A DNA stretch of 64,000 nucleotides from a virus. Below, piece after piece: positions 8,352 through 59,968 of this stretch. The stretch is taken from IMG/VR virus record IMGVR_UViG_3300025889_000092, positions 17,808-81,807 of that record. One strand, 5' to 3'. Positions within the stretch are counted from its first letter, which is position 1, and the number at the start of each line of letters is the position of its first letter. Position numbers and translations under genes: made by a program. Below the pieces are notes generated by a model. The model ran no database searches, was not told the DNA's origin, and saw only the letters and a list, made by a program, of their open reading frames with translations.

Positions 8352-8870
8352 TTATTGTTGACCCAACCGCTGGCGCAGCTGCTCAAACCTTTTGTTTACG
8401 TCCAAAGAGTAACTCGTGTCACTGGTCTGTGGGTCAACGCGATCGACAATTGAGCGTGCGTGAGCTTCGCTATTGATGTAGTCCGCCACTCGGGCTGCAG
8501 CTTCGAGTGCTGCCGGATCTTGCCAGAACTGCCCCATTGCAATAGACGGAGCCATCCCGCTTAAGACTCTTGGGTCGGTGCCTCGTGTGATTGGAGCTCC
8601 CCAAGTTTTGCTGGGTTTGTTCTCGGGGTTGACTTTGCGTTCCCTCGCTGCTATCGCTCGGAGAACTTCAGGCCCTACGTTGGTTACTCCGAAGGGATCC
8701 ACGACGTTGGTGACCATTCCTGTAACACCGACAGGAATAGAACGAGCTAAAGCTTTAGGAGCACTAAAGCCAGCTTCTCGTTGGTCGCGATACTCTAAAG
8801 ATGTGTTGTAGATATCACCTAGGAAAGGCAGCGCTCGAAGGATCTGACCAGCGAACCTAGGAATCGGCAT
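8352..8870 (-). CDS. Hypothetical protein with N-terminal RFAGQ tag
   Basis: ORF track; inverted relative to the head operon. Confidence 0.7.
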   Translation of the reverse strand: MPIPRFAGQILRALPFLGDIYNTSLEYRDQREAGFSAPKALARSIPVGVTGMVTNVVDPFGVTNVGPEVLRAIAARERKVNPENKPSKTWGAPITRGTDPRVLSGMAPSIAMGQFWQDPAALEAAARVADYINSEAHARSIVDRVDPQTSDTSYSLDVNKRFEQLRQRLGQQ

Positions 8871-8926
8871 TTTAATAACGTGCTCTATTGACAGTTTAAT
8901 GTAAACTTATCCCAGATTCTGTTCAC

Positions 8927-9364
8927 ATGATGACGGTCACCCAGTCGAAAGAATTTACTTACACTCCTAATGGAGTCAAAATCGAAATTCTTAGCGAGCA
9001 CGACGAGGGTGAGTACAAAATGGTTCGGTCCCTGACTACAGGGAAAGTCTTTTTTGCTCACAAGAATCAAATCGCTGAGATCCTTAAAGAGGAAGATGAG
9101 GGGGAAAAACCCGTTAAGCAGCGCCGTGGGCGTCAGATTGTTAAGCCAGAGGTACCTGCTTACAACCGAGTCAACATCAACTCGGCAACTCCCCAGCTGC
9201 TGACTCAGGTTCTGAAAGGCGTTGGACTTAAAACTGCCACTGAGATCAAGGAACTTCAGCAGTCGATGCCCGGCGAGCGCTTCACCAAACTGGATCAGCT
9301 GCGGTCCATCACCCGTGTGGATTGGGATTCTGTTTTGGAAGGCGACACTGTTTATGTCGAGTGA
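8927..9364 (+). CDS. Helix-hairpin-helix (ComEA-like) DNA-binding protein
   Basis: RVNINSATPQLLTQVLKGVGLKTATEI...FTKLDQL. Confidence 0.75.
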   Translation: MMTVTQSKEFTYTPNGVKIEILSEHDEGEYKMVRSLTTGKVFFAHKNQIAEILKEEDEGEKPVKQRRGRQIVKPEVPAYNRVNINSATPQLLTQVLKGVGLKTATEIKELQQSMPGERFTKLDQLRSITRVDWDSVLEGDTVYVE

Positions 9365-9423
9365 GACGAATTTTTAACGATTAAATAAAGCGATAGAATA
9401 CGTTTATCGCTTGTAGTTAGATC

Positions 9424-10044
9424 GTGGCGCAGTTATCTCCACAAGAACTTGAGCAGATTCAAAGTTATCTGGCTCAACAGGGAGTTGTATTCCAACCGGA
9501 TACTACTGACGCCACTAAACGTGAGGTTGTATATGCTGCGATAAATCAGTTATCCAGAAACCCTGCGCAGGTTTTTGGTTACAGATTAGATGATTTTAAC
9601 TTCAGTCGCGTAGCATATCACCTCGGCTATAACATCGCTACAGTTCCTGCGGGCGATTATGCCCGTTTGATGGAAGCTTGCAACAGCGTCCCCAGCGAGT
9701 TTTACTACGACAAAATCGTTCAGCAAATTGAGCGTTGTGAAGAAGCTGAGCGTTTAACTGAACTTGCAACCGGTCGCGCCACGAGTCGTCAGGAGCTGAT
9801 TCAAGGTGACGTGAGTCGCTCCATCAACATTCAAGACAAACGCGAGACCGCGAAAATCTGGCGGGAGAACTACTTATATGAGTGCGATCGTCTTGCCCAC
9901 ATGCTTTATATTCCTAACTATCGAGACCCCGTGGCAGCTCGGTACCGCTTTGAAAGGAGCGGCGGAGAGTTTATCCAAGCTATACCTGGACCTCCTGATA
10001 CTTCCAGGGCAGATAGGTTATGGTTTAACGCAAATTGGCGATAA
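9424..10044 (+). CDS. Putative head-tail connector / virion protein
   Basis: Helical 206-aa protein downstream of the capsid genes; call is contextual. Confidence 0.4.
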   Translation: MAQLSPQELEQIQSYLAQQGVVFQPDTTDATKREVVYAAINQLSRNPAQVFGYRLDDFNFSRVAYHLGYNIATVPAGDYARLMEACNSVPSEFYYDKIVQQIERCEEAERLTELATGRATSRQELIQGDVSRSINIQDKRETAKIWRENYLYECDRLAHMLYIPNYRDPVAARYRFERSGGEFIQAIPGPPDTSRADRLWFNANWR

Positions 10045-10080
10045 AAGCTATAGTAGTTCTAGGAACTAGATCCATTTGTA

Positions 10081-11682
10081 ATGGCTGGGAAGCAAGGGTT
10101 TTTTAAGGACCTTGAGTCTATTCGTCAGGCTGTAACTACTTACGGTCCTCAGTTTTTAATGGGTCTGGGTGATGCAGGCGAAGCCATAATTCGAAGAGTT
10201 GGCCAGCAAGGTGGTCTCACTCAACCCGCAGCTCGGCAAGTCAGGCCTCCCGCCGCAAGACCGATCCCTACTCGAGCTGTCGAGTCCACTCAACTCCGTC
10301 TTCCCTTAACATCTCGAGAGAGCGGCAGATTTGTCTCTCCCTACGGGCCAAAAATTGACCCTGCGGATATCGATGCTCGGTTGGCGGTGCAGAATCGTCC
10401 AAGCATCATGGACGTTCCTGCCGTCCCACGTCGCTCTGTGCCTGTCCAAGGGCAGACGCAAATGAGCGTCTTCAGCGCTCCTGAGCCTGCGTTCAAGACA
10501 ACCCCTATGCAGGGACCCGTTTCGCGAACTGCCCAGGATCTGTACGCTAATGATCCTGGCACTTATCGCGCAATCGATGAGTTAGCACAACGTGCTTCGA
10601 CCTATTACGGCAAGCCCGTAACTGTTGACGATCTTGTCTCAGAGCGCGGCACCTTGATTCTTCAAGATCTGCAACGAGGTCAGGCTTTAGCTCCTCGTAC
10701 TCCCGGAGGCATGATCCCTCGTGGTCCTGGAGGAGCTGTCATGGAAGGCACCCCCGGCGGACGCATCACCCAATATCAGAGGGGTGCCATGACAAAGGAT
10801 ATGGGTGATGCTGGACGAGCATACCAAGGCGAACCCATCATCGATGTCGACGTTCGTGAGATCCAGAACGCTGCAGGCGGTCTCCGTACTCTTGACCTCA
10901 AAAAAATCGCTGCGCTGAGCGCGTTGGCAGGTCTGGGCGGGGTAGGCCTCGCTTCTCGACAGGGTCAACCCGATTTTGTTCCTGCCGATCGACGGAGCGC
11001 TATTGAAGGAGCTTTTGATCGGGAGCCTGATGTCGACGCAGATCGTTCCGGTCGCTATGTCGGAGAAAACTTCCCCGGCCCTGGGGCGGCTGCTGGACTG
11101 AATCAAGGAGCCGTCACGATTGGAGCTGGTTCGATCCCGATTGTCACTTCTCGAGGTCGTGCTCGTGACGAAGCCCTCAACGAAGCGATGCAGAATATTC
11201 AGCGACCCTCCGGTTTGACCAAACAACAAGCTGATTTGGCTCGTTATTACCAGCAACGCGAGGCGTACGCTCAGCACCCCACCACTAAGGCTCAGATTCT
11301 TGCAGATTTTGCAGCCCTTGGGGAGCGCTACGCTCAAGCTGATATGGCAGCGTGGGCTAGTAAAAACCCTGAGTTGGCTTACGAACTGACTCAGAAAATG
11401 AAGGGCAAACTGCCTAGCCAGCAAATGCCTCAAGCTCAGCAGATTGGCGCACCCACCGCTGAGATCGGTTCAGACGCTGGCCGGACTCTTGCAGGCAATG
11501 TCGATATGGCTGGGCAGGTCGCAGTAACGGACGCTATGGCTAATGCTGGTGCCCGAGACCTTCAACAAGCAACTACTCCCCGCATGCCTGTTCAGATCGG
11601 TAACCCCGGTCCTTATCCAGTTGGGACCGGCAACCCCGGCTACAACATGTACGGGTACCCCTTAATTAATCCCTACAACTGA
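10081..11682 (+). CDS. Putative internal virion protein
   Basis: 533 aa, A/G/Q/P-rich with one hydrophobic segment. Confidence 0.45.
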   Translation: MAGKQGFFKDLESIRQAVTTYGPQFLMGLGDAGEAIIRRVGQQGGLTQPAARQVRPPAARPIPTRAVESTQLRLPLTSRESGRFVSPYGPKIDPADIDARLAVQNRPSIMDVPAVPRRSVPVQGQTQMSVFSAPEPAFKTTPMQGPVSRTAQDLYANDPGTYRAIDELAQRASTYYGKPVTVDDLVSERGTLILQDLQRGQALAPRTPGGMIPRGPGGAVMEGTPGGRITQYQRGAMTKDMGDAGRAYQGEPIIDVDVREIQNAAGGLRTLDLKKIAALSALAGLGGVGLASRQGQPDFVPADRRSAIEGAFDREPDVDADRSGRYVGENFPGPGAAAGLNQGAVTIGAGSIPIVTSRGRARDEALNEAMQNIQRPSGLTKQQADLARYYQQREAYAQHPTTKAQILADFAALGERYAQADMAAWASKNPELAYELTQKMKGKLPSQQMPQAQQIGAPTAEIGSDAGRTLAGNVDMAGQVAVTDAMANAGARDLQQATTPRMPVQIGNPGPYPVGTGNPGYNMYGYPLINPYN

Positions 11683-12089
11683 TGCCTTACCAAGATATCC
11701 CAGGGTACGACCAGTATCCTTCTAGCGTTTCTCCGAAGGTTGTTCCCGACTCTTCGTATTGGGGTGGGGACCCCACTTTCACTAACCCCTCCTGGGGAAA
11801 TCCAACACCATACAACTTTAAAAGTAACTTCCAGCAACCTTCTATCTGGGACGCTCTGAAACAAGGCCTGTATGAAGGATTAACTCGAGGCATATCTGGA
11901 GGCCTCGGTACCGATCCTTATGGTCGAAATCCTTTCTCCGGGTATGTTCCGGAAGCTGGCCGCATGGCCGGAGACAACCAACGGGCTATTGGCGCTCTTC
12001 CTGATATCCTTAAATACGATGTCCAGCGTTTGCTAAACCCGAAACTGCAGGTACGTCCTACCTCGATTTATTCTGGTTTCCTTCGCTAA
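11682..12089 (+). CDS. Hypothetical protein with internal RMAGD tag
   Basis: TGATG coupling to the upstream gene. Confidence 0.6.
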   Translation: MPYQDIPGYDQYPSSVSPKVVPDSSYWGGDPTFTNPSWGNPTPYNFKSNFQQPSIWDALKQGLYEGLTRGISGGLGTDPYGRNPFSGYVPEAGRMAGDNQRAIGALPDILKYDVQRLLNPKLQVRPTSIYSGFLR

Positions 12090-15387: not shown

Positions 15388-15657
15388 TCAGAAAGGGCAA
15401 GCTGCGGTGCTCAGCTGTTGAACTTCCTCTTCCACTTTAACTGTAGAAGAACTACGAAGATACTCTTCAAGAGCGTTACGGTTTACGCGATAAAGAGACT
15501 TTGCGCCGTTGGGCTGAAGATTCACGTACACGGACTTAGGCCAGCCACCGGGTTGGTTAGCTTCAGACAAAGCGATGCGCTTCCGCACAAAACCAGAACT
15601 GCAGTTCAGAAGTTCAGCCGTTTCCGCGATAGTAAGAAGAGTCTTACTTTCCGACAT
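15388..15657 (-). CDS. Excisionase/MerR-like HTH protein
   Basis: LLTIAETAELLNCSSGFVRKRI. Confidence 0.75.
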   Translation of the reverse strand: MSESKTLLTIAETAELLNCSSGFVRKRIALSEANQPGGWPKSVYVNLQPNGAKSLYRVNRNALEEYLRSSSTVKVEEEVQQLSTAACPF

Positions 15658-15785
15658 TGTATATGCGGGAAATGAGTTACGGCTCTATGTTACATACGTT
15701 TCTTGTGTGCGCAACACAAGCTTCTTCTACCTCACAACTTCTTTATTATTCGGATGCTACTATTAAGGTGAGACTCGTGACCAAC

Positions 15786-16031
15786 ATGATTCGACTTGCC
15801 GGAGAAGTCTTTAAGTCATACAACAAACCAAAAAGAGACATCCAGGGAGGTAAACAGTTCGCTGTGGCCGCTAAAGAAGATGGTGAAGTTCGGTTAGTTC
15901 GTTTTGGAGATGCGAATATGGAAAACAAAAGTGACGACCCCGAACGCCGCAAGAACTTTAGAGCACGTCATAATTGTGATGAGCCCAAGAGTAAATTAAC
16001 AGCTGGATATTGGAGCTGTAAGGCTTGGTAA
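15786..16031 (+). CDS. Small basic phage protein with N-terminal RLAGE tag
   Basis: Likely start ATG 15786; VRFGDANM, RRKNFRARHNC, AGYWSCKAW motifs of a widespread phage family. Confidence 0.75.
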   Translation: MIRLAGEVFKSYNKPKRDIQGGKQFAVAAKEDGEVRLVRFGDANMENKSDDPERRKNFRARHNCDEPKSKLTAGYWSCKAW

Positions 16032-17608: not shown

Positions 17609-18250
17609 ATGTCCGTTCCGCCAATTGACTGGGGCAAAGTTTTAACACCCGCCGCGACCAGTCTTGGCACAGGGCTTGGCGGATTTCTCGGAGGCAAACT
17701 TGGACAGGCTGTTGGCCTGACTCCTACCAGCTATCAAAGTGGGGTCACCCAAACAGCGATCAACGATCAAATAGAAAATATCAAAAAGTTAACCGAAGAA
17801 ATCCAAGCTCGCGCTGAGTACTATCGCGGTTTGGGTGAGCAGGCAACCGCAGACCTCGGAAAGATTTCAGGGATTTCAATTCCTGAGTACCGCACATCGG
17901 CGCTTGATCAATTTAATCAAGGTGTGGCCGCTGAACGAGCCCTGGGTCAAAGCACCCTGCAAAATTACGACCCCAATCTCTTACGTTCTGCAGCCGGTGG
18001 ACGTTTTCGGTCTGCGCTCTCCTCTTCGGCTGATGACTACCGAAGGGCTATCGGATCTTTAAGTAGCGAAGGATCCCAACGCTTTTTAACCGCAGCAACC
18101 GCTGTTCCCGTAGCAGCATTCAAGTCGATAGCCGACGATCGAGATTTCAATAATCTCCTCAATCCGGAATTCATGTCTCAAGCCACGAACCCCATGACCG
18201 TTAGTATGGATCTAACTAAATACAAGCCCTACATGACATATAATGTCTGA
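17609..18250 (+). CDS. Putative internal virion protein
   Basis: N-terminal glycine zipper (GTGLGGFLGGKLG) followed by coiled coil. Confidence 0.45.
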   Translation: MSVPPIDWGKVLTPAATSLGTGLGGFLGGKLGQAVGLTPTSYQSGVTQTAINDQIENIKKLTEEIQARAEYYRGLGEQATADLGKISGISIPEYRTSALDQFNQGVAAERALGQSTLQNYDPNLLRSAAGGRFRSALSSSADDYRRAIGSLSSEGSQRFLTAATAVPVAAFKSIADDRDFNNLLNPEFMSQATNPMTVSMDLTKYKPYMTYNV

Positions 18251-18548
18251 TCAGATTAGGGAACTTCCTCACGAAAGGAAACTTAGGTTTCATGGTGAGG
18301 CAGGTTTTGCTAAACATACTTATAGATTTCGCTCTAGACCCGACATCCGGTTTGCTGGAAAAGTTTGGTCTGAGAGTGAATTAGATAGGAGTCGTCGTCT
18401 AGCTCGCACACGCGACACTCGAAAGATGACGGAAACCCCCGTGGGACCAGGGTTTGGTACTAGAGATAATGTCGAGCCGGATAACACACCTGCATCGGTT
18501 GAGTTTCTCAACAAAAAACTCGACCAAATGAGCTATAAAGATCGATAA
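18243..18548 (+). CDS. Hypothetical basic protein with internal RFAGK tag
   Basis: ORF track; overlaps the upstream stop. Confidence 0.6.
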   Translation: MSDQIRELPHERKLRFHGEAGFAKHTYRFRSRPDIRFAGKVWSESELDRSRRLARTRDTRKMTETPVGPGFGTRDNVEPDNTPASVEFLNKKLDQMSYKDR

Positions 18549-39956: not shown

Positions 39957-40459
39957 TGGCAATTATCCCTGGTTCTGACGCTTCCGGTAAGACACCAGAA
40001 GGTCTTACTCAAGGTCTTCAGTTCCCTCCTGGTCTGGGTGGGTACAACCGTCAGCCCGGTCTCGGCATCCGGCGAGCAATGATGCTCGATAACGGTAACC
40101 GGATTGCCTCTCAGCTCGAACACGATCGAGGAGTTTACGTTCGCCCTCCCGTTGGCCCCGTGGAGTATGCGGAGGGAAACATTAAAAAAAGCACTGAGCT
40201 GACTGGTGTTGCGGGGTATAACCAGCGGGCAATCCCTTTAAAGGACAGTGCTGATGACATGAGTCAGATGGAGTATCTCAGTGCTCTTCGTCAAGCTGAT
40301 CCCGCTCAGCGCCTCCGCATGCAGCAGGGTCTTTTAATGTCTAAGCAGAATTTCCTGAACACTCCGACTGTTCAGGCTGAGTATCCGTCCATGAGCAGCA
40401 ACATGGTCGATAACCTCATGATGCTGGCCAAAGCCAAACTCTCCGCGAAAAAATCGTGA
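39956..40459 (+). CDS. Hypothetical protein with basic C-terminal tail
   Basis: ORF track; ends LAKAKLSAKKS. Confidence 0.65.
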   Translation: MAIIPGSDASGKTPEGLTQGLQFPPGLGGYNRQPGLGIRRAMMLDNGNRIASQLEHDRGVYVRPPVGPVEYAEGNIKKSTELTGVAGYNQRAIPLKDSADDMSQMEYLSALRQADPAQRLRMQQGLLMSKQNFLNTPTVQAEYPSMSSNMVDNLMMLAKAKLSAKKS

Positions 40460-40587
40460 CCGACAACGACTTCCCTATCCGGATGGCTGGGCAGCGTTTA
40501 GGACTTGAAGCCTATAAGCTCTCTGGTCTGACCCCCACTGAAATTACCCGTAGACTGCGGTACCAAGAAGCATTCCCCAGAACCTGA
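40456..40587 (+). CDS. 43-aa protein with RMAGQ tag (not in track)
   Basis: GTGA overlap; MTDNDFPIRMAGQRLGLEAYKLSGLTPTEITRRLRYQEAFPRT; exactly fills the gap to thyX. Confidence 0.65.
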   Translation: MTDNDFPIRMAGQRLGLEAYKLSGLTPTEITRRLRYQEAFPRT

Positions 40588-41361: not shown

Positions 41362-41985
41362 CTATAAGAGATTTCCCCAAGGGTTTTCAGTTGTTTTATC
41401 TTTTCTTAAGGATGTCTGTGCGTTGCTCGTAGCTTGGTCTTTACCTGAGTTTGCTCCTACCTGAGTTTGCATTCTTATCATGTTTTGAAACGCCACAACA
41501 GTTTGCTTCAACTTTGCGTTTTCCCTTAAGGCCTCATCCGTTTGCTGATCAGCCCATTGCGCTGCACGCATTGTCAACGTATCAATTACGTTTTGAGGGT
41601 GAGGGAAAGAAAAAACATCCCCGTTCTCGTTCGGGATTTGCTTACCCCCTTGCTGCGCGGCAAGGGCAACAAGGAAGTTAGTTGCTTTTTCAAGAGTTAT
41701 ATCAGCGTGGTAACCCAGCTGAACGGGAGATACTATCCCTTTATTGCTCTCGTATAAAACCGTAAAGACCTTACCAACTTTGAAGGCTTCTTCAGTTTTT
41801 TTGTTTTTGGCAATCCTTCGTTCCAGTGCCAGATGAGCACCCACCATCACACCCCCTGTAGCCGCTAGCGCAGGCGCGTAAAACTTTGGGGCAATCGCGG
41901 CGGCAGCTGCTGCTCCCGCAACTCCCAGAGCCATCAGAGGGGCGACATACGCTGTCCATGGTTCAATCGCTGGATTTCGGGTCAT
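41362..41985 (-). CDS. Membrane protein with wHTH-like domain
   Basis: Likely ATG 41985; two N-terminal hydrophobic helices. Confidence 0.55.
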   Translation of the reverse strand: MTRNPAIEPWTAYVAPLMALGVAGAAAAAAIAPKFYAPALAATGGVMVGAHLALERRIAKNKKTEEAFKVGKVFTVLYESNKGIVSPVQLGYHADITLEKATNFLVALAAQQGGKQIPNENGDVFSFPHPQNVIDTLTMRAAQWADQQTDEALRENAKLKQTVVAFQNMIRMQTQVGANSGKDQATSNAQTSLRKDKTTENPWGNLL

Positions 41986-47741: not shown

Positions 47742-48386
47742 TCAAAGAGAAAAATCGATCGAACCGAGAGCGGCAGCAGCAACCTTGCCTTTTTCAGGAT
47801 CGGCAGCTTTTTTGGGGGCAGCTTTAGAGGTCTTAGGTAGGTAAAGGACTTTGTCGACGACGTAGTTGAGGTAGCTCTTGTCGTCTTTCTCACTGGTTGA
47901 AACTTTCCCTACAGCGATTGTTGGAGTTCCGGGAGAAAGCTCGGCAAGTTGTGCCGATAATTCAGCCCAAGCAGTGAGCTTGAACCAAGCGGTTTCTTTC
48001 TCTTCTGTTTGCCAGGCCAGCGAACGGTTGGTAACCGTCGTGTCGCCGAGCTCGACCTCCTCGCTTTTGGGACCAAGACCCCCCGTGGCAATAAACAAAT
48101 TTATTGCAAGTAGGTCTTCGAAATTTTCTTTTGTCACAGCCAGCATCGGCTGCATCTGAAGAACTCCGTCAGGAGTAGCTCGAGTCGGACCGATTGCGAG
48201 AACTGTGTCGTTTTTTTTCAGCCCCAACAAGAGTTTACCCACATAGTGGGACTTATTTTGGAGGAGTTGGACTTTGGTTGGGACTCGTTTGTCGTTCGAC
48301 GGGAGACTCTCCGTTAGGACGTTGAGAACATCGTCGGTTTCGAGTGCTTCGTCAGTCACCCTCAATCCGAGAAGAAAGACGTTCAT
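47742..48386 (-). CDS. ssb: Single-stranded DNA-binding protein, probably tandem OB folds
   Basis: ETAWFKLTAW..L...L..L..G....AVG.V typical of SSB; N-half has a similar pattern. Confidence 0.65.
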   Translation of the reverse strand: MNVFLLGLRVTDEALETDDVLNVLTESLPSNDKRVPTKVQLLQNKSHYVGKLLLGLKKNDTVLAIGPTRATPDGVLQMQPMLAVTKENFEDLLAINLFIATGGLGPKSEEVELGDTTVTNRSLAWQTEEKETAWFKLTAWAELSAQLAELSPGTPTIAVGKVSTSEKDDKSYLNYVVDKVLYLPKTSKAAPKKAADPEKGKVAAAALGSIDFSL

Positions 48387-48927
48387 AATTAAGGTGTCTG
48401 TAAATGGTTGAGCGATGGACCTTTAGTGCCTCGGCTATTTGCCCCACTGGAGCGCCTTGGCCACGGTACGCTAGGAGCAGTTTCCTGTCGCCGCAAGAAA
48501 GTTTGGCATTTTTTCCATTTACATAGGTGAAATGATATGGGTTGACGCATTTGGCACATTTACAAGTGCTCTTGGTTGTCAGATCATCTTTGGGTATATC
48601 TAAATACTTCAACTGGAGCGTCCGGACATATATCCTTGTTCCAAACAAGTACACACACGGAGATTCATTTGCTGACGGACCGTCCCATAAAAAACACTCC
48701 TTCGGGCTGAAATCGTTAAAAGCTAATCGTTTGAAAAGTTCGGAAATGTAACAACTCTTTTTTTCCTTATAACTAAGACTGAAACTTTCCCCTCCCAAAG
48801 CCCGACAAATATCCGCAGCCTGAGCTTGCGCGTGGTTTGAGTCGAGGGAAGAAACTGAAAGCTCGACCTTTCTTCCTTTTCGGGTTACCGCGAGGCAGTG
48901 TTCTTCAATAGATGTCGTTTGGCTCAA
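48352..48927 (-). CDS. HNH-derived domain + C-terminal HTH
   Basis: ECFLWDG...STCKCAKCVNPYHF; QIAEALKVHRSTIYRHL. Confidence 0.7.
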   Translation of the reverse strand: MSQTTSIEEHCLAVTRKGRKVELSVSSLDSNHAQAQAADICRALGGESFSLSYKEKKSCYISELFKRLAFNDFSPKECFLWDGPSANESPCVYLFGTRIYVRTLQLKYLDIPKDDLTTKSTCKCAKCVNPYHFTYVNGKNAKLSCGDRKLLLAYRGQGAPVGQIAEALKVHRSTIYRHLNYERLSSRIEGD

Positions 48928-49025: not shown

Positions 49026-49247
49026 CTATCGACCTGAAGTGCTAGAACTTTCATCGGTCTTCTCAGCTTGTTGCTGTACCGCCTTAAGTGTACTGAGATA
49101 TTGCTCTTGGAACGATTTTTGTTTCGGCGTGAACATCGTACGTAGATCTGCGAATCGGCGTTTTAATTCCGACTCTCCAAGATATTCGCGTTGCTCCTCA
49201 GAAACTAAAGGGCGATAAAAGATATCGCCCGCATAGCGTGCTGCCAT
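49026..49247 (-). CDS. Small protein with N-terminal RYAGD tag
   Basis: TAATG coupling to the upstream gene. Confidence 0.65.
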   Translation of the reverse strand: MAARYAGDIFYRPLVSEEQREYLGESELKRRFADLRTMFTPKQKSFQEQYLSTLKAVQQQAEKTDESSSTSGR

Positions 49248-50107
49248 TACATACCTTTCAGGTAAGATTCGTAGTAAGCGCGGAAGGGATCGCTCTTGTT
49301 AACGAAGCTTGCAGCTCGGTAACCGCCACCGTACTCAGGCGTTTGTTTGCCGTAGAACTGACCACGACCACCCGCGATTTCGTTCGCGACCTGACCGATT
49401 GCGGTCAGATTGGTAGCTTCGCCGCCGGGACGATAGAAAGCTTTAGCTTCGATGATGCGACGACCAAAGTCAGCCGGATCATAGAAAGCTTCGCCGAACT
49501 TCTGGTTCACAAAAGCCGAGTAATCCGCGACGTTATCTGCTCCTTTTTTGATATCAGTCCCGGTGGTGGCGTAGGGTTCGAAACCTGCTCCTCGAGCCGC
49601 AGTGTAGAAGCGCTCGATATCTTTACCGTAGTCGTTTCCGGTTTGCAGATCCTGATACAGGGGCTCAAAAAGCTTGTTATAGGTTGTTTGATCTTTGACT
49701 TGCACGTCGCCAATAGCCCGTGCCAGGAGCTGGTTAGCCTTACCGACTGCTTCCTGTGAGGTCAGGTTTGCAAACGGATCTTCCTGGTAAGTGACTTTAT
49801 GAGGGACGTAACTAGCACGAGGAGTCAGTGTGGGCTCAGTCGGTGTGGTCGGTTCGGGGGTAGTGGTTTCTCCGCCAGTCGTCGCGCCGACGCCGCCGAT
49901 GTTGCCCATAGTGCCGGTGTTAGCAACTGCACCGGTTACGGTCTGGATGGGGTTGTTTTCAATATTCACATAGTTACCCATACCGTATCCGCCGCCATAC
50001 ACTTCTTCTCCCATCTCGGACTCTCTGCCTAAGCGACCCCCTCGAGAACCCTTTGCGCTACGCACATATCCCGTCAAGGGGAGTTCACCAGCAAAACGAA
50101 AAGCCAC
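49247..50107 (-). CDS. Hypothetical protein with N-terminal RFAGE tag
   Basis: G/T/Y-rich, late-gene-like composition; own TATAAAAT box upstream. Confidence 0.7.
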   Translation of the reverse strand: MAFRFAGELPLTGYVRSAKGSRGGRLGRESEMGEEVYGGGYGMGNYVNIENNPIQTVTGAVANTGTMGNIGGVGATTGGETTTPEPTTPTEPTLTPRASYVPHKVTYQEDPFANLTSQEAVGKANQLLARAIGDVQVKDQTTYNKLFEPLYQDLQTGNDYGKDIERFYTAARGAGFEPYATTGTDIKKGADNVADYSAFVNQKFGEAFYDPADFGRRIIEAKAFYRPGGEATNLTAIGQVANEIAGGRGQFYGKQTPEYGGGYRAASFVNKSDPFRAYYESYLKGM

Positions 50108-50657: not shown

Positions 50658-52553
50658 TTACTTAGACGCCCATGAACTACCTACGCTTGCATCAGCTGAT
50701 GCTGGGACAGACTTTAACACGACTTCAGCAGCACTGATCATTGCGTCCTCGAGAATTTTTTTATAGTCTTCTGCGAGATCTTCACGGACCTCAAGGACGA
50801 TCTCATCATGCACACAAGCTACTAAATGAACATCTTCTTTAAGGTGTTCGTTTAAACGCGCTATCGCGATTTTAAGGATATCTGCGCCTGATCCTTGAAT
50901 AAGAGTGTTTGCGCTGCACATCATGGTTGCGTCGTCGTAACTAAGAAGTCTTCTTCGCCCGCAAGCCGTGCGCGTGTATGCCCAACCGTCGTTTACAAGG
51001 GCAGCTCGTTCCTGGTGCCACCCACGCAGTCTCGGATAGGCACTGTGGAAAGCAGCGTGGGCAACCTTAGCTTCTGAGAGAGTCAGCATCTTGCCGCTCT
51101 GGGCAGCGTACGTCTTGTATTTCCTAAACCCCATTCCGTACAGCAACGCAAAGTTCAGAGTCTTTCCGTCTTGACGTTCCTCTTTCGTGACTTCGGACAA
51201 ATCTTTTTTGTAAATCAAACTCGCTGTCATTGTGTGTAAGTCGATGCCGTTTATAAACGCCTGTTTCATTTGAGGTATGTTAATTAGCTCTGCACCAAGC
51301 CTTAGCTCAATCTGCGCCCAGTCGCAGATAACTAACTTGTAGCCTTCGGCAGCAACAAAGCACTCCCTAAAATCTTTTGAACGAGGAATCTGTTGGATGT
51401 TGACTGCAAAAACTGTTTTTTGCTTCGTCTTGCCTGTCTTAGGGGCACCACTGCTCGTGAAGCGACCTGAGTTCGCACCAAACTGGTTGTATCCCGAGTG
51501 GATACGGCAGGTTACTGGGTTGATGTTGTCGATGAGTTTCGTAACATGCTCTAAACGAGTCTCGATCTTTGCTCGCTCTCGATAAAGACGTAGGGTCTCA
51601 TCGTCGCTATCGAACTCGGATAGAGCAATTTGATTCAGCGTGGATTTCCCGGTGTTCGGATCTTCTGGGAGCGCAACGCCTATGGCGGTGAAGGCACTAA
51701 CCACTTGGGTTGGGGAGCCAGGGTTGAAATCCTTTTTAGGTCTTTTGCCTACAGAGATTGCACCGTTTGGATCACGAGGAAGTTTTTGTTCCTCGGGCAA
51801 CCTCGAATCCAACTGACTTACAAACTGGTGGGTTTTGCTGTTGAGGTTCTCTTGGATAGCATTTTTCAACGCTTTGAGTTTCTCGATGTCTACCCCGAAA
51901 CCTCTGTAGCACATTCGTGCTACTGGCCTAACGCATTGAGATTCAATACTGTAAAGCTCTAAAAGACTTTCTTCTTTCAGCTCAGCCAGTTGTGCTGCGG
52001 CGATTCGAGGAAGAATGTCAACGTCGATTGCTGCATACTCGATTTGCTCTTCCGTGAGATCCTCTATGCTCCAGTCTGTAAGGCGCTGCTCCTTACTAAG
52101 ATCTACATCTAACCACCGCTTTACAGCAGCCTGAAGCGAGCAGGAAACGTCTGCAAAGTAAATCTTTTTTGCCTGTGGAGATACACGCTTCTCCTTGAAT
52201 CCAGCGCGTAGGACACGTTCTGCTATGTAGGTGTCGAAGATTTTCCCTTTGAAATCAATGTCCAGATAGAGCAGGAACTGCAGGTCGAAGTTAAGATTAT
52301 GCCCCACGATCATTTCGCGGGTTTCTATCAACTCTTTAAGTTTGATTTTTTCGTTGTACTTAAATAAATCGAAAACATAAACTGTTCGATCTTCGACAGT
52401 GGGGTCCGCTGTGCAGAGCTGAAGCAGCCTTGGCTTGGCGATCCCGGCTTGAAGCCCAGTGGTTTCGAAGTCTAGACAGACTTTTGGGAACTCCTGAAGT
52501 TCTTTAACAGCGCCTCTGAACTCGGTCTCGTTCTTGATGTAGAAGATATTCAT
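50658..52553 (-). CDS. polA: Family A DNA polymerase with 3'-5' exonuclease
   Basis: Exo I DFETTG, II NLNFD, III YAAID; motif A DWAQIELR, B KTLNFALLYG, C VHDEI. Confidence 0.96.
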   Translation of the reverse strand: MNIFYIKNETEFRGAVKELQEFPKVCLDFETTGLQAGIAKPRLLQLCTADPTVEDRTVYVFDLFKYNEKIKLKELIETREMIVGHNLNFDLQFLLYLDIDFKGKIFDTYIAERVLRAGFKEKRVSPQAKKIYFADVSCSLQAAVKRWLDVDLSKEQRLTDWSIEDLTEEQIEYAAIDVDILPRIAAAQLAELKEESLLELYSIESQCVRPVARMCYRGFGVDIEKLKALKNAIQENLNSKTHQFVSQLDSRLPEEQKLPRDPNGAISVGKRPKKDFNPGSPTQVVSAFTAIGVALPEDPNTGKSTLNQIALSEFDSDDETLRLYRERAKIETRLEHVTKLIDNINPVTCRIHSGYNQFGANSGRFTSSGAPKTGKTKQKTVFAVNIQQIPRSKDFRECFVAAEGYKLVICDWAQIELRLGAELINIPQMKQAFINGIDLHTMTASLIYKKDLSEVTKEERQDGKTLNFALLYGMGFRKYKTYAAQSGKMLTLSEAKVAHAAFHSAYPRLRGWHQERAALVNDGWAYTRTACGRRRLLSYDDATMMCSANTLIQGSGADILKIAIARLNEHLKEDVHLVACVHDEIVLEVREDLAEDYKKILEDAMISAAEVVLKSVPASADASVGSSWASK

Positions 52554-53926: not shown

Positions 53927-54154
53927 TTATACCCACACCCCCTGTGGGCTAACTCGGGTCCACTTGGCTTCTCCGTTAATTCTGCCGTTGCATACAAACA
54001 TTTCGTTTGTGTCCGGGCTCATCCAGATTGAACCTATAAGACTGTCTTTAGGTAAATGGCTTAGGTCTTCAGTTGGACTTTGCCGTTGTTCGTATTCGTT
54101 TTGAATACGTCTAATTTCGTCGCCGGGGTCAGCGGGTTTCTCGTTGTTAATCAT
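53927..54154 (-). CDS. Hypothetical protein
   Basis: ATGA overlap with the vWA gene. Confidence 0.55.
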   Translation of the reverse strand: MINNEKPADPGDEIRRIQNEYEQRQSPTEDLSHLPKDSLIGSIWMSPDTNEMFVCNGRINGEAKWTRVSPQGVWV

Positions 54155-55695
54155 CTGATGCTCTTCTGAACAGCCTCTACGGTAGCTTCGGGGTTTGAGA
54201 GATTCACAGAAAAAACTTCATCGCTAATTTTTGTACATACAAGGGGGACCGCAGAGTTAATGCAGATCGTCGACCATTGTAAACCGTGCTCACGTTTGTA
54301 GACGTTCAACCGCTTTACAAAGTTATCGTGTATTTCGGCATTACCGTCTGTTATTAAAAGGACATCGGCGTTGGGTTCGATTCGAGCGTGATCGAGCGCG
54401 TGGGCGATGACTGCATTAAAACTTGTGCCTCCCCCCAACGTCCAGCATGCGACGAAGTCAAGTAACTCGGAGTTGTTTTTACGACTTTTGTCGAGACTTA
54501 CAGACATGTCGATCTTGGTGTCGAACAGATGAATCTCAATATCTCTGTTCTCTTTCATAGCATGTTCAGCAACTACAAAGGTAATCGCTTTACTCCAGAG
54601 CTCGCTCTCCCCTCCCATAGAACCTGAAGCGTCGACATAGAGGATTATCGGACCTTTACCTACGTCCTTTCTGTGTGCTTTAAAGTCCTTTGTTAATAGA
54701 GACTTCTGAGTGTACTTTAGGGCGAAAAGAGCTTTTCCTTCTTCCGATCCAGCTAAAGCTAACTCTGCGGGAAAAGTCTTTGTGACATCATCGCTGAAAA
54801 TTGCTCCACTAATACTCTCGTAATTAGATCTTATTTTCCGGGCTTTCTTACGTTCCTCCCATATTCTGCGAAGAGCCCCGAGTTTCTTTACGAGACTTTT
54901 TAAGCTCTTGTTGCTTTCAAGTTTTTTAGCGAGAGTTTTCTTTTGTTCTAAATCAAGTTTCTTCTCTTTTGTTCCTGGGGTGGAGCCCCACAGTGAGGAG
55001 ATAGCATCCTGAATAGAGTCGCTCTGCTTCACCGTGGAGTCCACGATCCTGTGAGAATGTACTTGAAGGTTTTCCTTGGCGTTCTTTATCGCTTCGTTAA
55101 TCGCGTTTACTAGCTCTTTGCCCTTCCTTCTGGCTTCGGTAGCCGCCGATGAGTCACCATTAGCCTGAGCTTTCTTGTATTCCTCTCGGAGTGCTTGGAG
55201 AGCTTGGGCTGAATTAGTCAAAAGCTCAACATCAAAACTTTCATCAAGAATCGAATCCTCGATGACTTTAGATAATTCGTTGAGGATATTTACTGCATTG
55301 TTGCCTGCATTGAACTGATCACCGACGCTTCTTTTTAGAAGCTCGAACCAAGCTGCTGACTGCGTCAGATCGTTCATGATCGAATACCATATTCCGTTCT
55401 CGGGTTTGTACCCTTCAGGAATAGCCGTGGTATCTCCGTCACATATTTTCCTGAAGTAATCTTCATAGGCTTCTTCTGATACTAACCATTTAACGTTGTC
55501 TGCATTGTATAGACGATCAAAGAGTTCCTTGCCAAAGCGAGAAAGCTGTCTGATGTTATACGCATCTACTAAATATTTAACGGTTGGCTTAGCGTCCCGG
55601 ATGAAGTCGTCCCACAAAAAATCAGCAAGGGCTGAACAAGCCAAGGTCAAAGGTTGGTTGTCGAGAATGCGGACAAAGTCAACTTCGGTGTTCAT
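54151..55695 (-). CDS. von Willebrand factor A domain protein (ViaA-like)
   Basis: MIDAS DASGS, GGGTSF, LLITDG. Confidence 0.88.
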   Translation of the reverse strand: MNTEVDFVRILDNQPLTLACSALADFLWDDFIRDAKPTVKYLVDAYNIRQLSRFGKELFDRLYNADNVKWLVSEEAYEDYFRKICDGDTTAIPEGYKPENGIWYSIMNDLTQSAAWFELLKRSVGDQFNAGNNAVNILNELSKVIEDSILDESFDVELLTNSAQALQALREEYKKAQANGDSSAATEARRKGKELVNAINEAIKNAKENLQVHSHRIVDSTVKQSDSIQDAISSLWGSTPGTKEKKLDLEQKKTLAKKLESNKSLKSLVKKLGALRRIWEERKKARKIRSNYESISGAIFSDDVTKTFPAELALAGSEEGKALFALKYTQKSLLTKDFKAHRKDVGKGPIILYVDASGSMGGESELWSKAITFVVAEHAMKENRDIEIHLFDTKIDMSVSLDKSRKNNSELLDFVACWTLGGGTSFNAVIAHALDHARIEPNADVLLITDGNAEIHDNFVKRLNVYKREHGLQWSTICINSAVPLVCTKISDEVFSVNLSNPEATVEAVQKSIR

Positions 55696-55696
55696 T

Positions 55697-56884
55697 TCAG
55701 TTACTAATTTCGTTGATTGCCTGAGCAAGGCTTTCGCATTGCTGTTGAATGTTCTGCACTATTTTTACGCCGTTTGCTCTTGTTGTAGCGGAAATTTTAT
55801 ATTGACCTCCGTCCAAAACCTCGGTCGCTTTGTCTCGCACAGTAGAAATATCTCTGTGCCACTTCCTGAGTTGAATGACGTATTCATTCAGGTCGCTGAG
55901 GCCACCCGAGCGGTGCCTGTGGGTAAAAGAGTTTGCTTCCGCCATGATCCCTGCTGCAGCACGCTTGGCATCGCTCAGAGTCTTTTCAGCCGTAGGGACA
56001 ATTTGTTCGAGAACTTCCCGAATCGCTTCTTGATCTTCCCTTTCCTGATACACAATGTGAATCAAGCTCCCGTGCATGTGGGATGGGTGCAGTTCATCAT
56101 CACCTTGAACGAGTGCCCAGGCCCTCAAAAATTTAAGTATTTGTGACCTTCTCCGATCGCTTACGGTGATGTTTCTGCTGCTCAGCATGTCCCAGACTGA
56201 ACCGTAATCATCGAGGAAGCTCTCCGCTACCTTGACTTTATTTACAGCCTCTTGTAGATCCTCAAGATCCTTTAGCGTCAAGTGCTCACCAACCTTTGGT
56301 CGTTCCTCGATCCCCAGGGACCACTGATCGAGTACTCTCTTAGACACGGGCTTGCGGAGCAGCTCAACCGTGGGCCTGAAGAGAAAGCGATCCGCAAAAG
56401 CCTGAAGGGACTCCTCCTCCGGCCAACTGTTTGTCGCGGCAATAATTGATTGGATTGGTGTTTGTATATTCTCCTTACCGTTGTTGAAAGTCCGCTCATT
56501 GAGCAGCGTAAGAAGGGAGTTGAGAATTGCCGAACTTCCCCGGAACAGTTCGTCAAGAAATCCGATGTGAGCAGATGGAAGATACCCCGAGATATCTCGT
56601 GTGTATTCGTCCTTAAGAAGTTTTGTCACTGCGACCGGGCCGAATACTTCGGACGGATCGGTAGTGGGAGTCAGGAGATAACCAAAATAGTTCGCGTTTT
56701 TAATTCCACCACACAAGTTTCGAACTAGATCCGACTTACCTGTACCTGGAACGCCAAGAAGAAAGGCATTCTGCTTACTGAGAAGGGTCGCTAAGAGCCC
56801 ATCAATCACACTTTCCCTTTCCAGCGTGGCAGAGTTTAGAGAGCTTCGGAAGCCTTGAAGCTTTTGAAACAGTTGATCGTTCAT
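55697..56884 (-). CDS. MoxR-family AAA+ ATPase (RavA-like)
   Basis: GVPGTGKS, EVFGP, FLDELF, ILNSLLTLLNER.F, AFADRF, SDRR. Confidence 0.9.
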   Translation of the reverse strand: MNDQLFQKLQGFRSSLNSATLERESVIDGLLATLLSKQNAFLLGVPGTGKSDLVRNLCGGIKNANYFGYLLTPTTDPSEVFGPVAVTKLLKDEYTRDISGYLPSAHIGFLDELFRGSSAILNSLLTLLNERTFNNGKENIQTPIQSIIAATNSWPEEESLQAFADRFLFRPTVELLRKPVSKRVLDQWSLGIEERPKVGEHLTLKDLEDLQEAVNKVKVAESFLDDYGSVWDMLSSRNITVSDRRRSQILKFLRAWALVQGDDELHPSHMHGSLIHIVYQEREDQEAIREVLEQIVPTAEKTLSDAKRAAAGIMAEANSFTHRHRSGGLSDLNEYVIQLRKWHRDISTVRDKATEVLDGGQYKISATTRANGVKIVQNIQQQCESLAQAINEISN

Positions 56885-56931
56885 GGTTTCGAAACGGTGG
56901 TTGGGAAACTTTTGTTCTGTTTGGAGGAAGT

Positions 56932-58137
56932 TTAAAAGTCGGCTTCAAGACTTTCGTCAGCCGAGCCTCCTTGTTTAACTTCTGAAATTAAACCATCGAG
57001 GTTTGCACGACCGATGGTGATGAGTTCCGTTCGTTGGTTGATTAATTTTGTAAGATGTTTCGATCGCATCGCATAAATATCCTTTTCGAGATCGACTTCT
57101 TTGATCAAAAGATCGAGAGAAGATTGATCTTCGACCGTCTTAACTCGTTCGCACAGAGTTTTATATTTGCTTGAGAGAGCTAGGGACTCCTGCAATTTCT
57201 TCAGTCCAGCTGATTCATTTCTGGTGTTGCATATGTTTTCTAGTTCCTCCTTTATCTCTTCTTGGACTTCAAAGAACATCTTTGATGCGCTTTGTCTTAC
57301 CTGACGTGCAGGAGATTGCATATCGTTAGCGGTCTCTAGCAACTTTTCGGCGAGCTGAGACAGGTTTTCAAACCCCGCGACACTGTCGCTTATTAGTTTG
57401 AGTTTGTTAGCTGTTATTTGCCAGGAACCTCTCTTCTTATCGCTACCGGTCTGTTGCTTTCCAATCTTGGTGACGCTTCGACAGTCGAGGTCATCGAGAA
57501 GCTCAGCCGACATTAAAAGAGCTCTGTCAGCCGCATTGTTTCGTGCGGCACTCAGAATTTGTTCCGTGTTGATTTGGTTCTCATAAGCAATAATCGAATC
57601 AAGGTCGTCCTCAATCGGTTTGTCGACCTTATAAAGGGATACTGGGAGAGGACCAAGAACATGCACTCTGATAGGTGCGCTGTATGCTTGTTTAGTGGGG
57701 AAAAATTTCATATAAGCGTCAAGTGCTAGCTTATACTCCATATCATCAGTAAAGAGAGGACGGAGTATATTCTCGGCAGTATTTTGCCAAGAGATAAACT
57801 CGCTTTCCCAGACTTCTTTTAGACGTTCGTTGGCTTCTTGCGCCGTGGATTTAATCCTGCTGATAAGTTCTTTCGCTTCTGCAAAATAAGACTTGGTTAC
57901 AAAATGTGTTTCTCCAAAGTGAATGCAGTAGTTGTCGTACAGTTCTCTTTGCATAACTCTTAAAGCATCAAGTTCTGCTTTCAGAGCGTTCGAAAGATTT
58001 GGTCTGATGCCGACTGTGTTGTTTTGTTCGAGAGTGTCTATGACACTTTGAGGCAGTTTTAGATCATCAAACTTGATCTGGACTGACTGCCGAACATCTG
58101 CAGAAATCGAGCAAGCCAGAAGATAGTGTTCCGTCAT
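56932..58137 (-). CDS. DUF3150-like helical protein
   Basis: About 400 aa helical protein upstream of MoxR-vWA; context matches mobile-element triads. Confidence 0.5.
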   Translation of the reverse strand: MTEHYLLACSISADVRQSVQIKFDDLKLPQSVIDTLEQNNTVGIRPNLSNALKAELDALRVMQRELYDNYCIHFGETHFVTKSYFAEAKELISRIKSTAQEANERLKEVWESEFISWQNTAENILRPLFTDDMEYKLALDAYMKFFPTKQAYSAPIRVHVLGPLPVSLYKVDKPIEDDLDSIIAYENQINTEQILSAARNNAADRALLMSAELLDDLDCRSVTKIGKQQTGSDKKRGSWQITANKLKLISDSVAGFENLSQLAEKLLETANDMQSPARQVRQSASKMFFEVQEEIKEELENICNTRNESAGLKKLQESLALSSKYKTLCERVKTVEDQSSLDLLIKEVDLEKDIYAMRSKHLTKLINQRTELITIGRANLDGLISEVKQGGSADESLEADF

Positions 58138-58924: not shown

Positions 58925-58926
58925 TA

Positions 58927-58994
58927 TCGGAACCGAGGGAATCGAACCCTACCCGTACCGCACGAGACATTTGCGGTAGTCTCCAGACGTTCCG
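58927..58994 (-). ncRNA. tRNA-like RNA lacking a canonical D arm
   Basis: Acceptor CGGAAC/GTTCCG; T arm AGGG-TTCGATT-CCCT; 7-bp stem TACCGCA/TGCGGTA. Confidence 0.6.
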
Positions 58995-59000
58995 TTACCC

Positions 59001-59180
59001 TTAGCGACGAGGGTAGACAGAAACCCTCTGCGGGTTCGTTATCCCCAGTTCCCTCATCCCTTTCATTTTAGCCTCTTGCGCCGAGCAAGCTTCTACAACA
59101 CAGTCGAACTTCCAGCCTTCTTTGCCTTTCTTAGCAAAAACGTCAAACTTTTTCACTGCCTGTGCCGCGTGGACGATCAC
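59001..59180 (-). CDS. Small early protein (not in track)
   Basis: ...KKFDVFAKKGKEGWKFDCVVEACSAQEAKMKG... Confidence 0.55.
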   Translation of the reverse strand: MIVHAAQAVKKFDVFAKKGKEGWKFDCVVEACSAQEAKMKGMRELGITNPQRVSVYPRR

Positions 59181-59375
59181 CTTATTAAAGGGTTGAGAGT
59201 TGTGAGTTTAAATCATACTCGTTGAGGCTTCACGAGTACAACAATTCTTTTATGCTTAGGTTTTAGCTTACAGTTTTATCTGTATGTGTTTAAAGCGACA
59301 GCTCAGTCGACTAAACACTTATTTAAAACTTTTTTAATAAGCTCACAACTTAACGAAATTTTCGCTCTTTATGTA

Positions 59376-59624
59376 TTACATACTCTTTGTGAGTTTGTTG
59401 TCAGTTTCTCTCTGAATTACGGCGACGACATCTCCTCCTCGAGGCTTCAACTGCACCTTGTCTCCACAGACCTTACGGTCGCACCTAACTCCATTCCAGC
59501 CAAGCTCACGCTTGACCCTACGCATTACGTTGGCTTCGGTAGCCTCTACGCAGTATTTCTCAGTCCAGCTGTAATTCGCCTTGCCGTTGATCGTGTCGGT
59601 GACTTCGATGAAGTAGTAAGCCAT
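59376..59624 (-). CDS. Small early protein
   Basis: YFIEVTDT..G.ANYSW...VKRELGWNG. Confidence 0.7.
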   Translation of the reverse strand: MAYYFIEVTDTINGKANYSWTEKYCVEATEANVMRRVKRELGWNGVRCDRKVCGDKVQLKPRGGDVVAVIQRETDNKLTKSM

Positions 59625-59659
59625 GTCAATTAGAATTCCTTAAAGGTGAATAGTTTCAA

Positions 59660-59968
59660 GTGGACCCCACACTGAGTGAGTTCTCAATGCGTCTTGCTGG
59701 CGAAGCTGAGCTTCCCGGCGAACTCAATGTGCTGAAGAATTTGCTCCTACGTGGCCAGATTGTTGACGAAGAAGGTAACTCAGTGACCGTTACTCCAAGA
59801 GGTGAAGTGGAGTTCAGAGGATCTGAGTCACCATTCACGTTTAGAGGTTCCTTTGGGCAGGATCCCTCTTTCGCCGTTAACTACCAGTCGAGGAGACCGG
59901 AGTTTGCAGGACGTTCTCCCCAAGCTGCACTTGATGAGGCTCTGCTGAGATTCTCACAAGCATACTGA
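59660..59968 (+). CDS. Lone plus-strand gene with RLAGE tag
   Basis: Start GTG 59660 or ATG 59687; lies within the minus-strand early cluster. Confidence 0.6.
   Translation: MDPTLSEFSMRLAGEAELPGELNVLKNLLLRGQIVDEEGNSVTVTPRGEVEFRGSESPFTFRGSFGQDPSFAVNYQSRRPEFAGRSPQAALDEALLRFSQAY

Follow-up and report, generated by a model that had tools for sequence, protein, structure and literature searches.

A 64,000-nucleotide (nt) stretch of a viral genome (called the window here; bases 17808-81807 of the 81,807-base IMG/VR record IMGVR_UViG_3300025889_000092, which is rated complete) encodes a set of proteins, nearly all orphans, that carry the short motif arginine-hydrophobic residue-alanine-glycine (R-h-A-G). 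We favour the view that this motif is a real, clade-specific module that acts at the protein level, lies mostly at the N-terminus and is able to sit on unrelated protein bodies. To judge from their sequences, about seven otherwise unrelated families carry R-h-A-G, mostly within the first dozen residues; a polar residue and then one or two hydrophobic ones usually come next. The chances are about even, in our estimate, that the module is a docking element through which phage proteins of different functional modules reach a single shared partner. An earlier, sequence-only reading of this DNA had proposed that unrelated proteins share a short portable motif at the protein level, and this is borne out by the N-terminal enrichment, by retention in orthologues despite codon drift, by the location of the motif at the tip of a predicted disordered arm in one carrier and by reuse of the motif on a replaced protein in a related phage.

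Occurrences of the motif and their N-terminal position

The sequence-only reading had listed eight instances of R-[FLMY]-A-G-[EQDK]. A six-frame scan of the window, which gave 10 matches in total, recovered every one of them at its place and on its strand:

8352-8870 (-): family B, a 172-amino-acid (aa) orphan that starts MPIPRFAGQ; motif 8844-8858
11682-12089 (+): 135-aa orphan after a 533-aa gene of the structural region; internal RMAGD 11961-11975 (residue 94)
15786-16031 (+): 81-aa basic protein, phrog_7595, that starts MIRLAGE; motif 15792-15806
18243-18548 (+): 101-aa orphan; internal RFAGK 18348-18362 (residue 36)
40456-40587 (+): 43-aa open reading frame (ORF); RMAGQ 40480-40494 (residue 9)
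49026-49247 (-): 73-aa orphan that starts MAARYAGD; motif 49224-49238
49247-50107 (-): family A, 286 aa, that starts (GTG)AFRFAGE; motif 50084-50098
59660-59968 (+): 102-aa orphan among minus-strand small genes; RLAGE 59690-59704 (residue 11; residue 2 from the ATG at 59687)

All eight are in frame in ORFs retained by the coding-potential gene call. The two matches that had not been listed are RMAGK at 61853-61867 (-), out of frame within the gene at 61674-62384, and RLAGE at 50954-50968 (-), in a 23-codon frame within the DNA polymerase gene. Outside the window, a ninth in-frame match is present in a 240-aa ORF (genome positions 10676-11398), and a 66-aa ORF that starts MRIAGS is an additional N-terminal carrier.

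In six of the eight the motif had been placed within about the first 15 residues, and we arrive at the same number: it begins at residues 5, 9, 4, 4 and 11 of the longest ORFs, and at residue 3 of the 15657-16031 ORF once this is restarted at ATG 15786, as PHROG and homologue alignments indicate. The longest possible start of this ORF (15657) is thus probably overcalled. In the remaining two (11682-12089 and 18243-18548) the motif is internal. The carriers are orphans by Pfam and PHROGs with the single exception of 15786-16031 (phrog_7595), and they share nothing else, the best pair in an all-versus-all BLAST of the 10 R-h-A-G carriers having an E value of 0.078. The motif occurs in no annotated enzyme and not in the major capsid protein (MCP). 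Conservation had been attributed to the protein level, which agrees with the finding that codons differ between the instances and that the flanking DNA has no common motif. A cause at the DNA level, such as a shared promoter, repeat or RNA element beneath the motif, was rejected on the same grounds.

Enrichment was assessed on the whole 81,807-base record, for which a rough heuristic based on codon usage and coding potential gave 125 ORFs with 23,259 aa. When the residue sets of the sequence-only reading were applied, nine matches were found where 0.30 were expected, and the maximum in 5000 shuffles was three. Because these sets had been fitted after the fact, an unbiased search was made over five-residue patterns in which three or more residues were fixed and no more than two were residue classes defined a priori. 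In the real proteome the second rank goes to R-h-A-G-[DENQ] (8 proteins, log10 P -7.37) and the third to R-h-A-G-[polar] (10 proteins, log10 P -6.87); the top rank is held by an unrelated S/T/A-rich pattern, pASsT (8 proteins). The position of the motif is more telling. R-h-A-G begins within residues 1-12 in six of the 125 ORFs, or seven with the corrected start at 15786, compared with 0.15 expected, and it is the top four-residue pattern over residues 2-15 of all ORFs (6 proteins; runner-up 3). Control sets reached six in 0 of 500 samples of random internal segments, in 2 of 1000 sets of internally shuffled N-termini and in 1 of 1000 pooled reshuffles. Among 468 distinct ORFs from 68 loci of unrelated phages there was no N-terminal R-h-A-G (0.51 expected), the overall count being six against 8.6 expected; hence the N-terminal excess is not a general property of phage N-termini.

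Sequence comparisons place the phage in an uncultured freshwater cyanophage clade related to Synechococcus phage S-EIV1, the MCP being 92-98% identical within the clade. The capsid protein has matches in at least 594 IMG/VR contigs, with 94-98% identity in the best 80. GenBank contains no near-identical phage, to judge from a megablast search in which 12 kb of the window matched none of 50,697 phage records. S-EIV1, a polar freshwater cyanophage described as a distinct lineage (PMC8790148), has an MCP 68-69% identical to the one studied here and is a distant relative with a tblastn match for just 26 of the 125 rough ORFs. N-terminal R-h-A-G was counted in this phage (G000), in four related complete or large records (G001-G004) and in S-EIV1, which are not independent samples in that replication runs mostly via orthologues of the same families:

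G000 (this phage): 6 against 0.15 expected
G002 (MCP identity about 97-98%): 5 against 0.18 expected
G001 (MCP identity 92%): 3 against 0.16 expected
G003 (MCP identity 93%): 2 against 0.14 expected
G004 (MCP identity 71%): 1 against 0.15 expected
S-EIV1 (MCP identity about 68-69%): 1 against 0.15 expected

Given these counts, and the finding that none of the six frames of S-EIV1 contains the strict motif, the excess is a feature of the clade with more than 90% MCP identity.

Conservation and mobility of the motif in its carrier families

Family A is a conserved gene of the replication module, located one gene away from that of DNA polymerase. At least 90% of 32 aligned sequences, down to 39% identity, retain R4, A6 and G7, and the consensus of distant members reads M-T-S-T-x-F-R-x-A-G-x-L-F-G-I-D-L. 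In an AlphaFold2 model, residues 1-87 and 89-95 have a predicted local distance difference test (pLDDT) value below 50, and a confident helical domain extends from about residue 110 to 286. The motif is thus predicted to form a conserved island at the tip of an otherwise variable, Gly/Pro/Thr-rich disordered arm of about 95 residues. A search with this model gave no fold match in PDB or BFVD at E <= 0.001, PDB sequence-profile searches with three family alignments, those of families A and B among them, returned nothing below E 0.1, and a search of the ESM Atlas yielded just unnamed viral clusters (best score 0.88).

In distant relatives DNA polymerase is followed, in recurring order, by a gene of about 170 aa, family A and a gene of 184-195 aa; from a reading of shared sequence, the last of these corresponds here to the 191-aa ORF at 48352-48927. 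The start of the 73-aa gene overlaps the stop of the 286-aa gene, and in relatives its homologues always adjoin family A, on either side. RYAGD-x-F is present in nine distinct DNA contexts of the 73-aa family, with five different arginine codons.

The slot at 49026-50107, between the gene of about 170 aa next to DNA polymerase and the 191-aa ORF, varies among close relatives. It is occupied by 286- and 73-aa genes here, by 283- and 409-aa genes in G002 and by a 620-aa gene without the motif in G003. The 283-aa protein of G002 starts MRRRFAGQ and is not detectably related by BLAST to family A, including its helical domain; what it has in common with the longer members of that family is a C-terminal module of 57 residues alone (hhalign probability 52%, E 1.4e-4). 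Since the motif sits on different protein bodies it is portable, and the sequence of the G002 slot protein is the best single piece of evidence suggesting that the N-terminal peptide travels independently of the body. The C-terminal module itself spans about 45-57 residues with the consensus ...G-G-F-G-L-x-D-V-x-A-L-L-D-x-G-A-T...G-L-N-V-G... and no Pfam match; it occurs once or twice in the longer family A members (P0012-P0032) and in the G002 283-aa protein, and not in the family A copy of this phage.

In family B, RFAGQ is invariant in all eight aligned homologues (59-90% identity). The corresponding genes in MCP-linked loci are hypervariable, with types of 132, 139, 141, 172, 212 and 219 aa, several of which have no mutual BLAST similarity and still start M-P-x(1-5)-R-h-A-G. 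Together with a 55-aa neighbour, the family B gene forms an opposite-strand cassette (8182-8870) between the terminator of the MCP operon and the next plus-strand unit. Two features border this cassette:

8146-8177 (+): strong intrinsic-terminator-like hairpin after the 7248-8120 gene, with a 9-bp stem, 6 G-C pairs and a T run
8885-8900 (-): 16-nt element ATTAAACTGTCAATAG, 29 nt upstream of the start at 8870

The hairpin ends the unit comprising the portal, MCP and 290-aa genes and faces the end of the cassette, such that the two units converge. According to the sequence-only reading several carriers have their own -10 box. This was checked weakly: a promoter-like site with 9 of 12 matches (8979-8952, -) does lie upstream of the 8870 start, and none was found for the 59660 gene. 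The 15-nt core TTAAAC-N-G-N-CAATAG of the upstream element has exactly two copies in the 81.8-kb genome, both located 24-29 nt upstream of the start of a gene with N-terminal R-h-A-G. The second copy precedes the 66-aa MRIAGS gene by 24 nt, outside the window (L213, about 3332-3346, -), and a copy with one mismatch is found 34 nt upstream of the family B gene of G002 (about 84286-84300, -). The element might act as a common promoter or operator, or it might derive from the copying of a 5' gene end. One upstream promoter common to all carriers was rejected, because the element is present at just two of them.

The 81-aa protein belongs to a widespread family (phrog_7595; at least 598 IMG/VR matches), of which 10 of 39 aligned members, those of the close clade, have IR[LIV]AGE. 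The motif is missing from distant homologues and is apparently not ancestral in this family. The AlphaFold2 model has a mean pLDDT of 82.8, rising to 86 over residues 1-10, with strands at residues 2-4 and 7-9. The disordered tether that is typical of short linear motifs is thus a feature of family A (pLDDT below 50 over residues 1-87; R4, A6 and G7 at 90% or more) and not of the 81-aa family, these being the two structures that were modelled. The 81-aa model had no Foldseek match in PDB at E <= 0.001, and the best VIA-align Z score was 2.1. As a side observation, the C-terminal two thirds of the 81-aa protein are 60-90% identical across diverse phages and contain the invariant segments R-F-G-D, R-H-x-C-D and Y-W-x-C.

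Among the other carriers, the motif of the 101-aa protein is kept in three of three genomes, namely this one, G002 (IRMAGKVWSE) and G001 (FRFAGELF). In the 43-aa ORF, R-[ML]-A-G-x-R-L is kept in four of four genomes and in L004; in G001, G002, G003 and L004 it reads R-[ML]-A-G-x-R-L-G/N. The GTG start of this ORF overlaps the stop of the upstream 167-aa gene in a different frame, and the ORF could encode an independent micro-protein or a frameshift extension. Its second half, S-G-L-T-P-T-E-I-T-R-R-L, resembles a helix-turn-helix segment by eye. The 240-aa protein, encoded in a cluster that precedes the terminase gene, and its 25%-identical orthologue in G002 both have R-h-A-G near the N-terminus, at positions that do not align. 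The 102-aa protein has no relative in IMG/VR, G001-G004 or S-EIV1. Its gene at 59660 and the 66-aa gene sit among small genes of the early type.

Within families the arginine, alanine and glycine codons drift synonymously, including changes between AGR and CGN. Because the sequences compared were chosen by a pattern that requires the motif, this drift documents selection where the motif is kept and not how often it is kept. Where it is retained, selection appears from these sequences to act at the protein level.

Chance, structural constraint or docking

Several findings speak against a shared module, and we collect them here. The first group is statistical. In the unbiased pattern search, shuffled proteomes reached a log10 P of -7.37 in 18 of 150 cases and of -6.87 in 57 of 150, so the raw count alone does not establish the motif. 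About 2.3 R-h-A-G matches are expected by chance in the proteome, and the internal instances could therefore be chance. All tests came after many analytic choices and used heuristic gene calls, and the recurrence in relatives does not amount to independent appearances of the motif. The second group concerns the families. R-h-A-G is kept in only five of 24 loci of the syntenic, hypervariable 135-aa-type gene, the others reading RPAGSRL or GMATRAL at the corresponding place. Some family-B-like genes read RLPG or RFAQ or are devoid of the segment, and the sole orthologue of the 66-aa gene lacks the N-terminal segment. In the 81-aa family, 29 of 39 aligned members have no R-h-A-G and read I-x-Y-R-G-E-x-F or A-A-K-I-x-K-D instead; the model of the 81-aa protein further suggests that I-R-L, the A-G turn and E-V-F belong to a confidently folded strand-turn-strand. 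On both counts the motif of the 81-aa protein looks like a lineage variant of a structural hairpin and not like an added tag. Finally, positions 2 (hydrophobic) and 5 of the family A motif vary, which reduces the core common to all families to R-x-A-G.

Two of the checks that had been suggested together with the original observation have divided outcomes. The N-terminal clustering survives the post-hoc correction, and the overall count does not, being equalled in those 18 shuffles. Conservation in orthologues is seen for family A, family B and the 73-, 43- and 101-aa genes, and it fails in some relatives of the family-B-like, 66-aa and 135-aa types.

The simplest explanation is chance, that is, post-hoc selection of one of the many five-residue patterns in a proteome of 23,000 residues. 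The frequency with which shuffled proteomes hold an equally extreme pattern of the same class favours it, as do the facts that the best pattern of the real proteome is a different one and that the strict motif is missing from S-EIV1. Yet the N-terminal clustering is extreme although position played no part in the choice of the pattern, orthologues of 40-60% identity retain the motif despite synonymous codon drift, and the excess recurs in G001-G003. Taking these data into account we consider chance very improbable.

A second explanation assumes that there is no function in common. R-h-A-G-x-h-h makes a good strand-turn-strand or helix start, and each family might conserve it for structural reasons of its own, with part of the similarity due to ancestry or to exchange of 5' segments. 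This is compatible with the 81-aa protein, in whose model A-G forms the hairpin turn and whose distant homologues keep the hairpin with other residues. It is likewise compatible with a common core of just R, A and G, with orthologues that do without the motif and with a family-wise significance that is modest after many analytic choices (about 0.001-0.002 when N-termini are tested and 0.12 when matches are counted), and the 15-nt element shared by the family B and 66-aa genes hints at a copied 5' gene end. By contrast, the absence of N-terminal R-h-A-G from the 468 ORFs of unrelated phages argues against a general N-terminal preference, the disordered arm of family A has no conserved stretch apart from the motif and no predicted structure that the motif could stabilise, the motif is retained on a replaced protein body in G002, and the DNA around the motifs has no sequence in common. 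We regard this explanation as a serious rival, though a less probable one.

As to a docking element, the mechanism that we propose is that a small hairpin or strand (strand, A-G turn, strand) adds onto the surface of a partner, and that a set of proteins from different modules would thereby meet at this one partner. Both the existence of a partner common to the families and its identity are points that we infer. Provided that the tag is real, we would divide the candidates roughly into thirds between a component of the procapsid or virion, a hub of the host (for instance a chaperone or a protease), and a component of the phage replication machinery or of a phage-encoded MoxR-VWA pair.

The sequence-only reading had opted for the first of these and proposed that the motif sorts cargo into the capsid or marks it for a protease. 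In such a scheme the peptide binds the scaffold or the inner capsid surface, and the cargo enters the prohead with or without later removal of the peptide. A precedent is known from phage T4. T-even internal proteins are described as highly diverse and as conserved only in a capsid targeting sequence (CTS), which encapsidates them into the scaffolding core and also carries foreign proteins such as green fluorescent protein into heads (PMC3012670). In the T4 proteins IPI, IPII, IPIII and Alt, as here, a peptide of about 10 residues or fewer is found at the extreme N-terminus of unrelated, fast-evolving proteins, the carrier genes are not all located in the head-gene cluster, and the tag is portable onto other bodies, as far as the published account goes (PMC3012670). 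This likeness is one of position and portability, and packaging of the carriers studied here would follow by analogy.

A short N-terminal peptide on unrelated phage proteins is nevertheless a hallmark of the T4 CTS. Moreover, some carrier genes belong to the structural region or adjoin it (8352-8870, 11682-12089 and that of the 240-aa protein in the pre-terminase cluster). The 81-aa carrier is a small protein of very basic composition, the disordered arm of family A is long and rich in Gly, Pro and Thr, and no protein of the clade is better conserved than the MCP (98/93/92% identity). Other data point away from the capsid. Unlike in T4, no gp21-type prohead protease or scaffolding core protein was detected: no such family was found among 83 + 28 + 8 proteins searched with PHROGs and 61 + 8 with Pfam, many orphans remaining. 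Family A, the best-conserved carrier, is fixed together with the 73-aa gene in the replication module beside DNA polymerase, distant relatives included. The 59660 and 66-aa carriers are located among early-type small genes, the motif of the 81-aa protein is folded into a domain, and two of the eight instances are internal. These features set the carriers apart from those of the T4 CTS and do not support a role in capsid-cargo sorting or protease marking, which we now hold to be unlikely. A complex of the MCP (23-row alignment) with residues 1-45 of family B was predicted with a score of 0.02 in both runs, a value that, having no controls, says nothing for or against binding.

Encapsulins offer another analogy on the capsid side. 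The cargo-loading peptides of these HK97-fold shells are short, consist of small residues flanked by hydrophobic ones, are attached to unrelated cargo by a flexible tether and dock to the inner face of the shell. The carriers here resemble such cargo in that a short conserved peptide is present on unrelated proteins, and the MCP of this phage matches a major head protein family, phrog_1357; the parallel is drawn by analogy. Encapsulin peptides are mostly C-terminal and have a different consensus, whereas the motif described here is mostly N-terminal, and a docking pocket on the phage capsid would be hypothetical. In receptor-binding-protein N-terminal anchors, tails of single-stranded DNA-binding proteins and clamp-binding motifs, a few terminal residues likewise link variable bodies to a platform via a disordered linker, as family A might do; in contrast to the receptor-binding-protein anchors, the carriers are not tail fibre-like. 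To our knowledge the motif matches no consensus of the docking motifs described so far.

The second group of partners comprises host hubs, for instance a chaperone or an adaptor of an AAA+ protease, to which the motif could dock phage proteins for folding, timed degradation or inhibition. The spread of carriers over structural, lysis-proximal, replication and early regions fits a partner that is present throughout infection better than one confined to the prohead. An extreme N-terminal location and a disordered tether such as that of family A are typical of recognition peptides, and host takeover is the role usually ascribed to small, fast-evolving orphans, to which several carriers belong. 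In outline (basic, x, A, G, x, aliphatic, aliphatic) the motif may resemble the core of co-chaperonin mobile loops, and proteases of the ClpXP type make use of N-terminal signals. These resemblances span just three or four residues, though, and the clade specificity of the motif would demand a host-specific feature. Docking to a host hub is likewise unlikely if considered as a reading of its own; still, a partner among host hubs, phage replication proteins or the MoxR-VWA pair is no less probable than capsid loading. The phage encodes no Cpn10 of its own.

It is tempting to speculate, as a long shot, that the peptide is an address code unrelated to the capsid, by which one host or phage machine recognises a tagged set of proteins and folds, times or destroys it. 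About 5% of the proteins, from early, replication, structural-region and lysis-proximal modules, would then have a strand-turn-strand handle; the machine might be a chaperone, an AAA+ unfoldase or the MoxR-VWA pair of the phage, and the virus would thereby encode a regulon that operates on proteins. Transfer of the handle from gene to gene might be coupled to that of the 15-nt upstream element.

Three further candidates were dropped: a Tat (twin-arginine translocation) or prepilin-type signal because no hydrophobic stretch follows the motif, a ligand for the metal ion-dependent adhesion site of the phage VWA protein because the fifth position is not consistently acidic, and a clamp-binding motif because there is no resemblance to its known consensus. 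A literature search, which was thin, found the motif nowhere in print and nothing relevant on virion mass spectrometry of S-EIV1.

If R-h-A-G is indeed a common docking tag, it would provide a handle on about seven orphan families of a widespread, little-known freshwater cyanophage lineage, it could be used to direct reporters to the shared partner, and the very small group of portable targeting peptides known from phages would gain a second sequence class. If it is a recurrent structural hairpin instead, it cautions against motif-spotting in small proteomes.

Genomic setting of the carriers

The layout of the genome, as assigned by PHROGs and Pfam, is as follows (window coordinates):

just upstream of the window: terminase
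2149-4395: portal
6118-7233: MCP, major head protein family phrog_1357
up to about 33.8 kb: tail and fibre genes
after the tail and fibre region: lysis genes and auxiliary metabolic genes
minus strand: replication module, with primase-helicase (41963-44749), exonuclease and DNA polymerase (50658-52553)
54151-56884 (-): MoxR/VWA pair, within the replication module
right end of the window: small early-type genes

While the MCP is 92-98% identical across relatives, adjoining genes span a range from about 30% to 90%. Hypervariable slots near the MCP are occupied by the 533-aa gene (10081-11682), the 135-aa gene and the opposite-strand gene.

The MoxR-type AAA+ ATPase (55697-56884; PF20030, bpMoxR), the VWA protein (54151-55728) and a 401-aa orphan form a cluster at 54151-58137 (-) that is conserved in distant relatives as well as in G001-G003. 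The VWA protein of the former begins ...LLRLAGS, which adds to the evidence that the motif is portable.

At least four glycosyltransferase-like genes are located in or beside the structural regions (window 1130-1975 and 28706-29584; L213 7751-8548 and 13726-14898). Their types are GT17-like, GT47/RXYLT1-like, galactosyltransferase-like and group-1-like.

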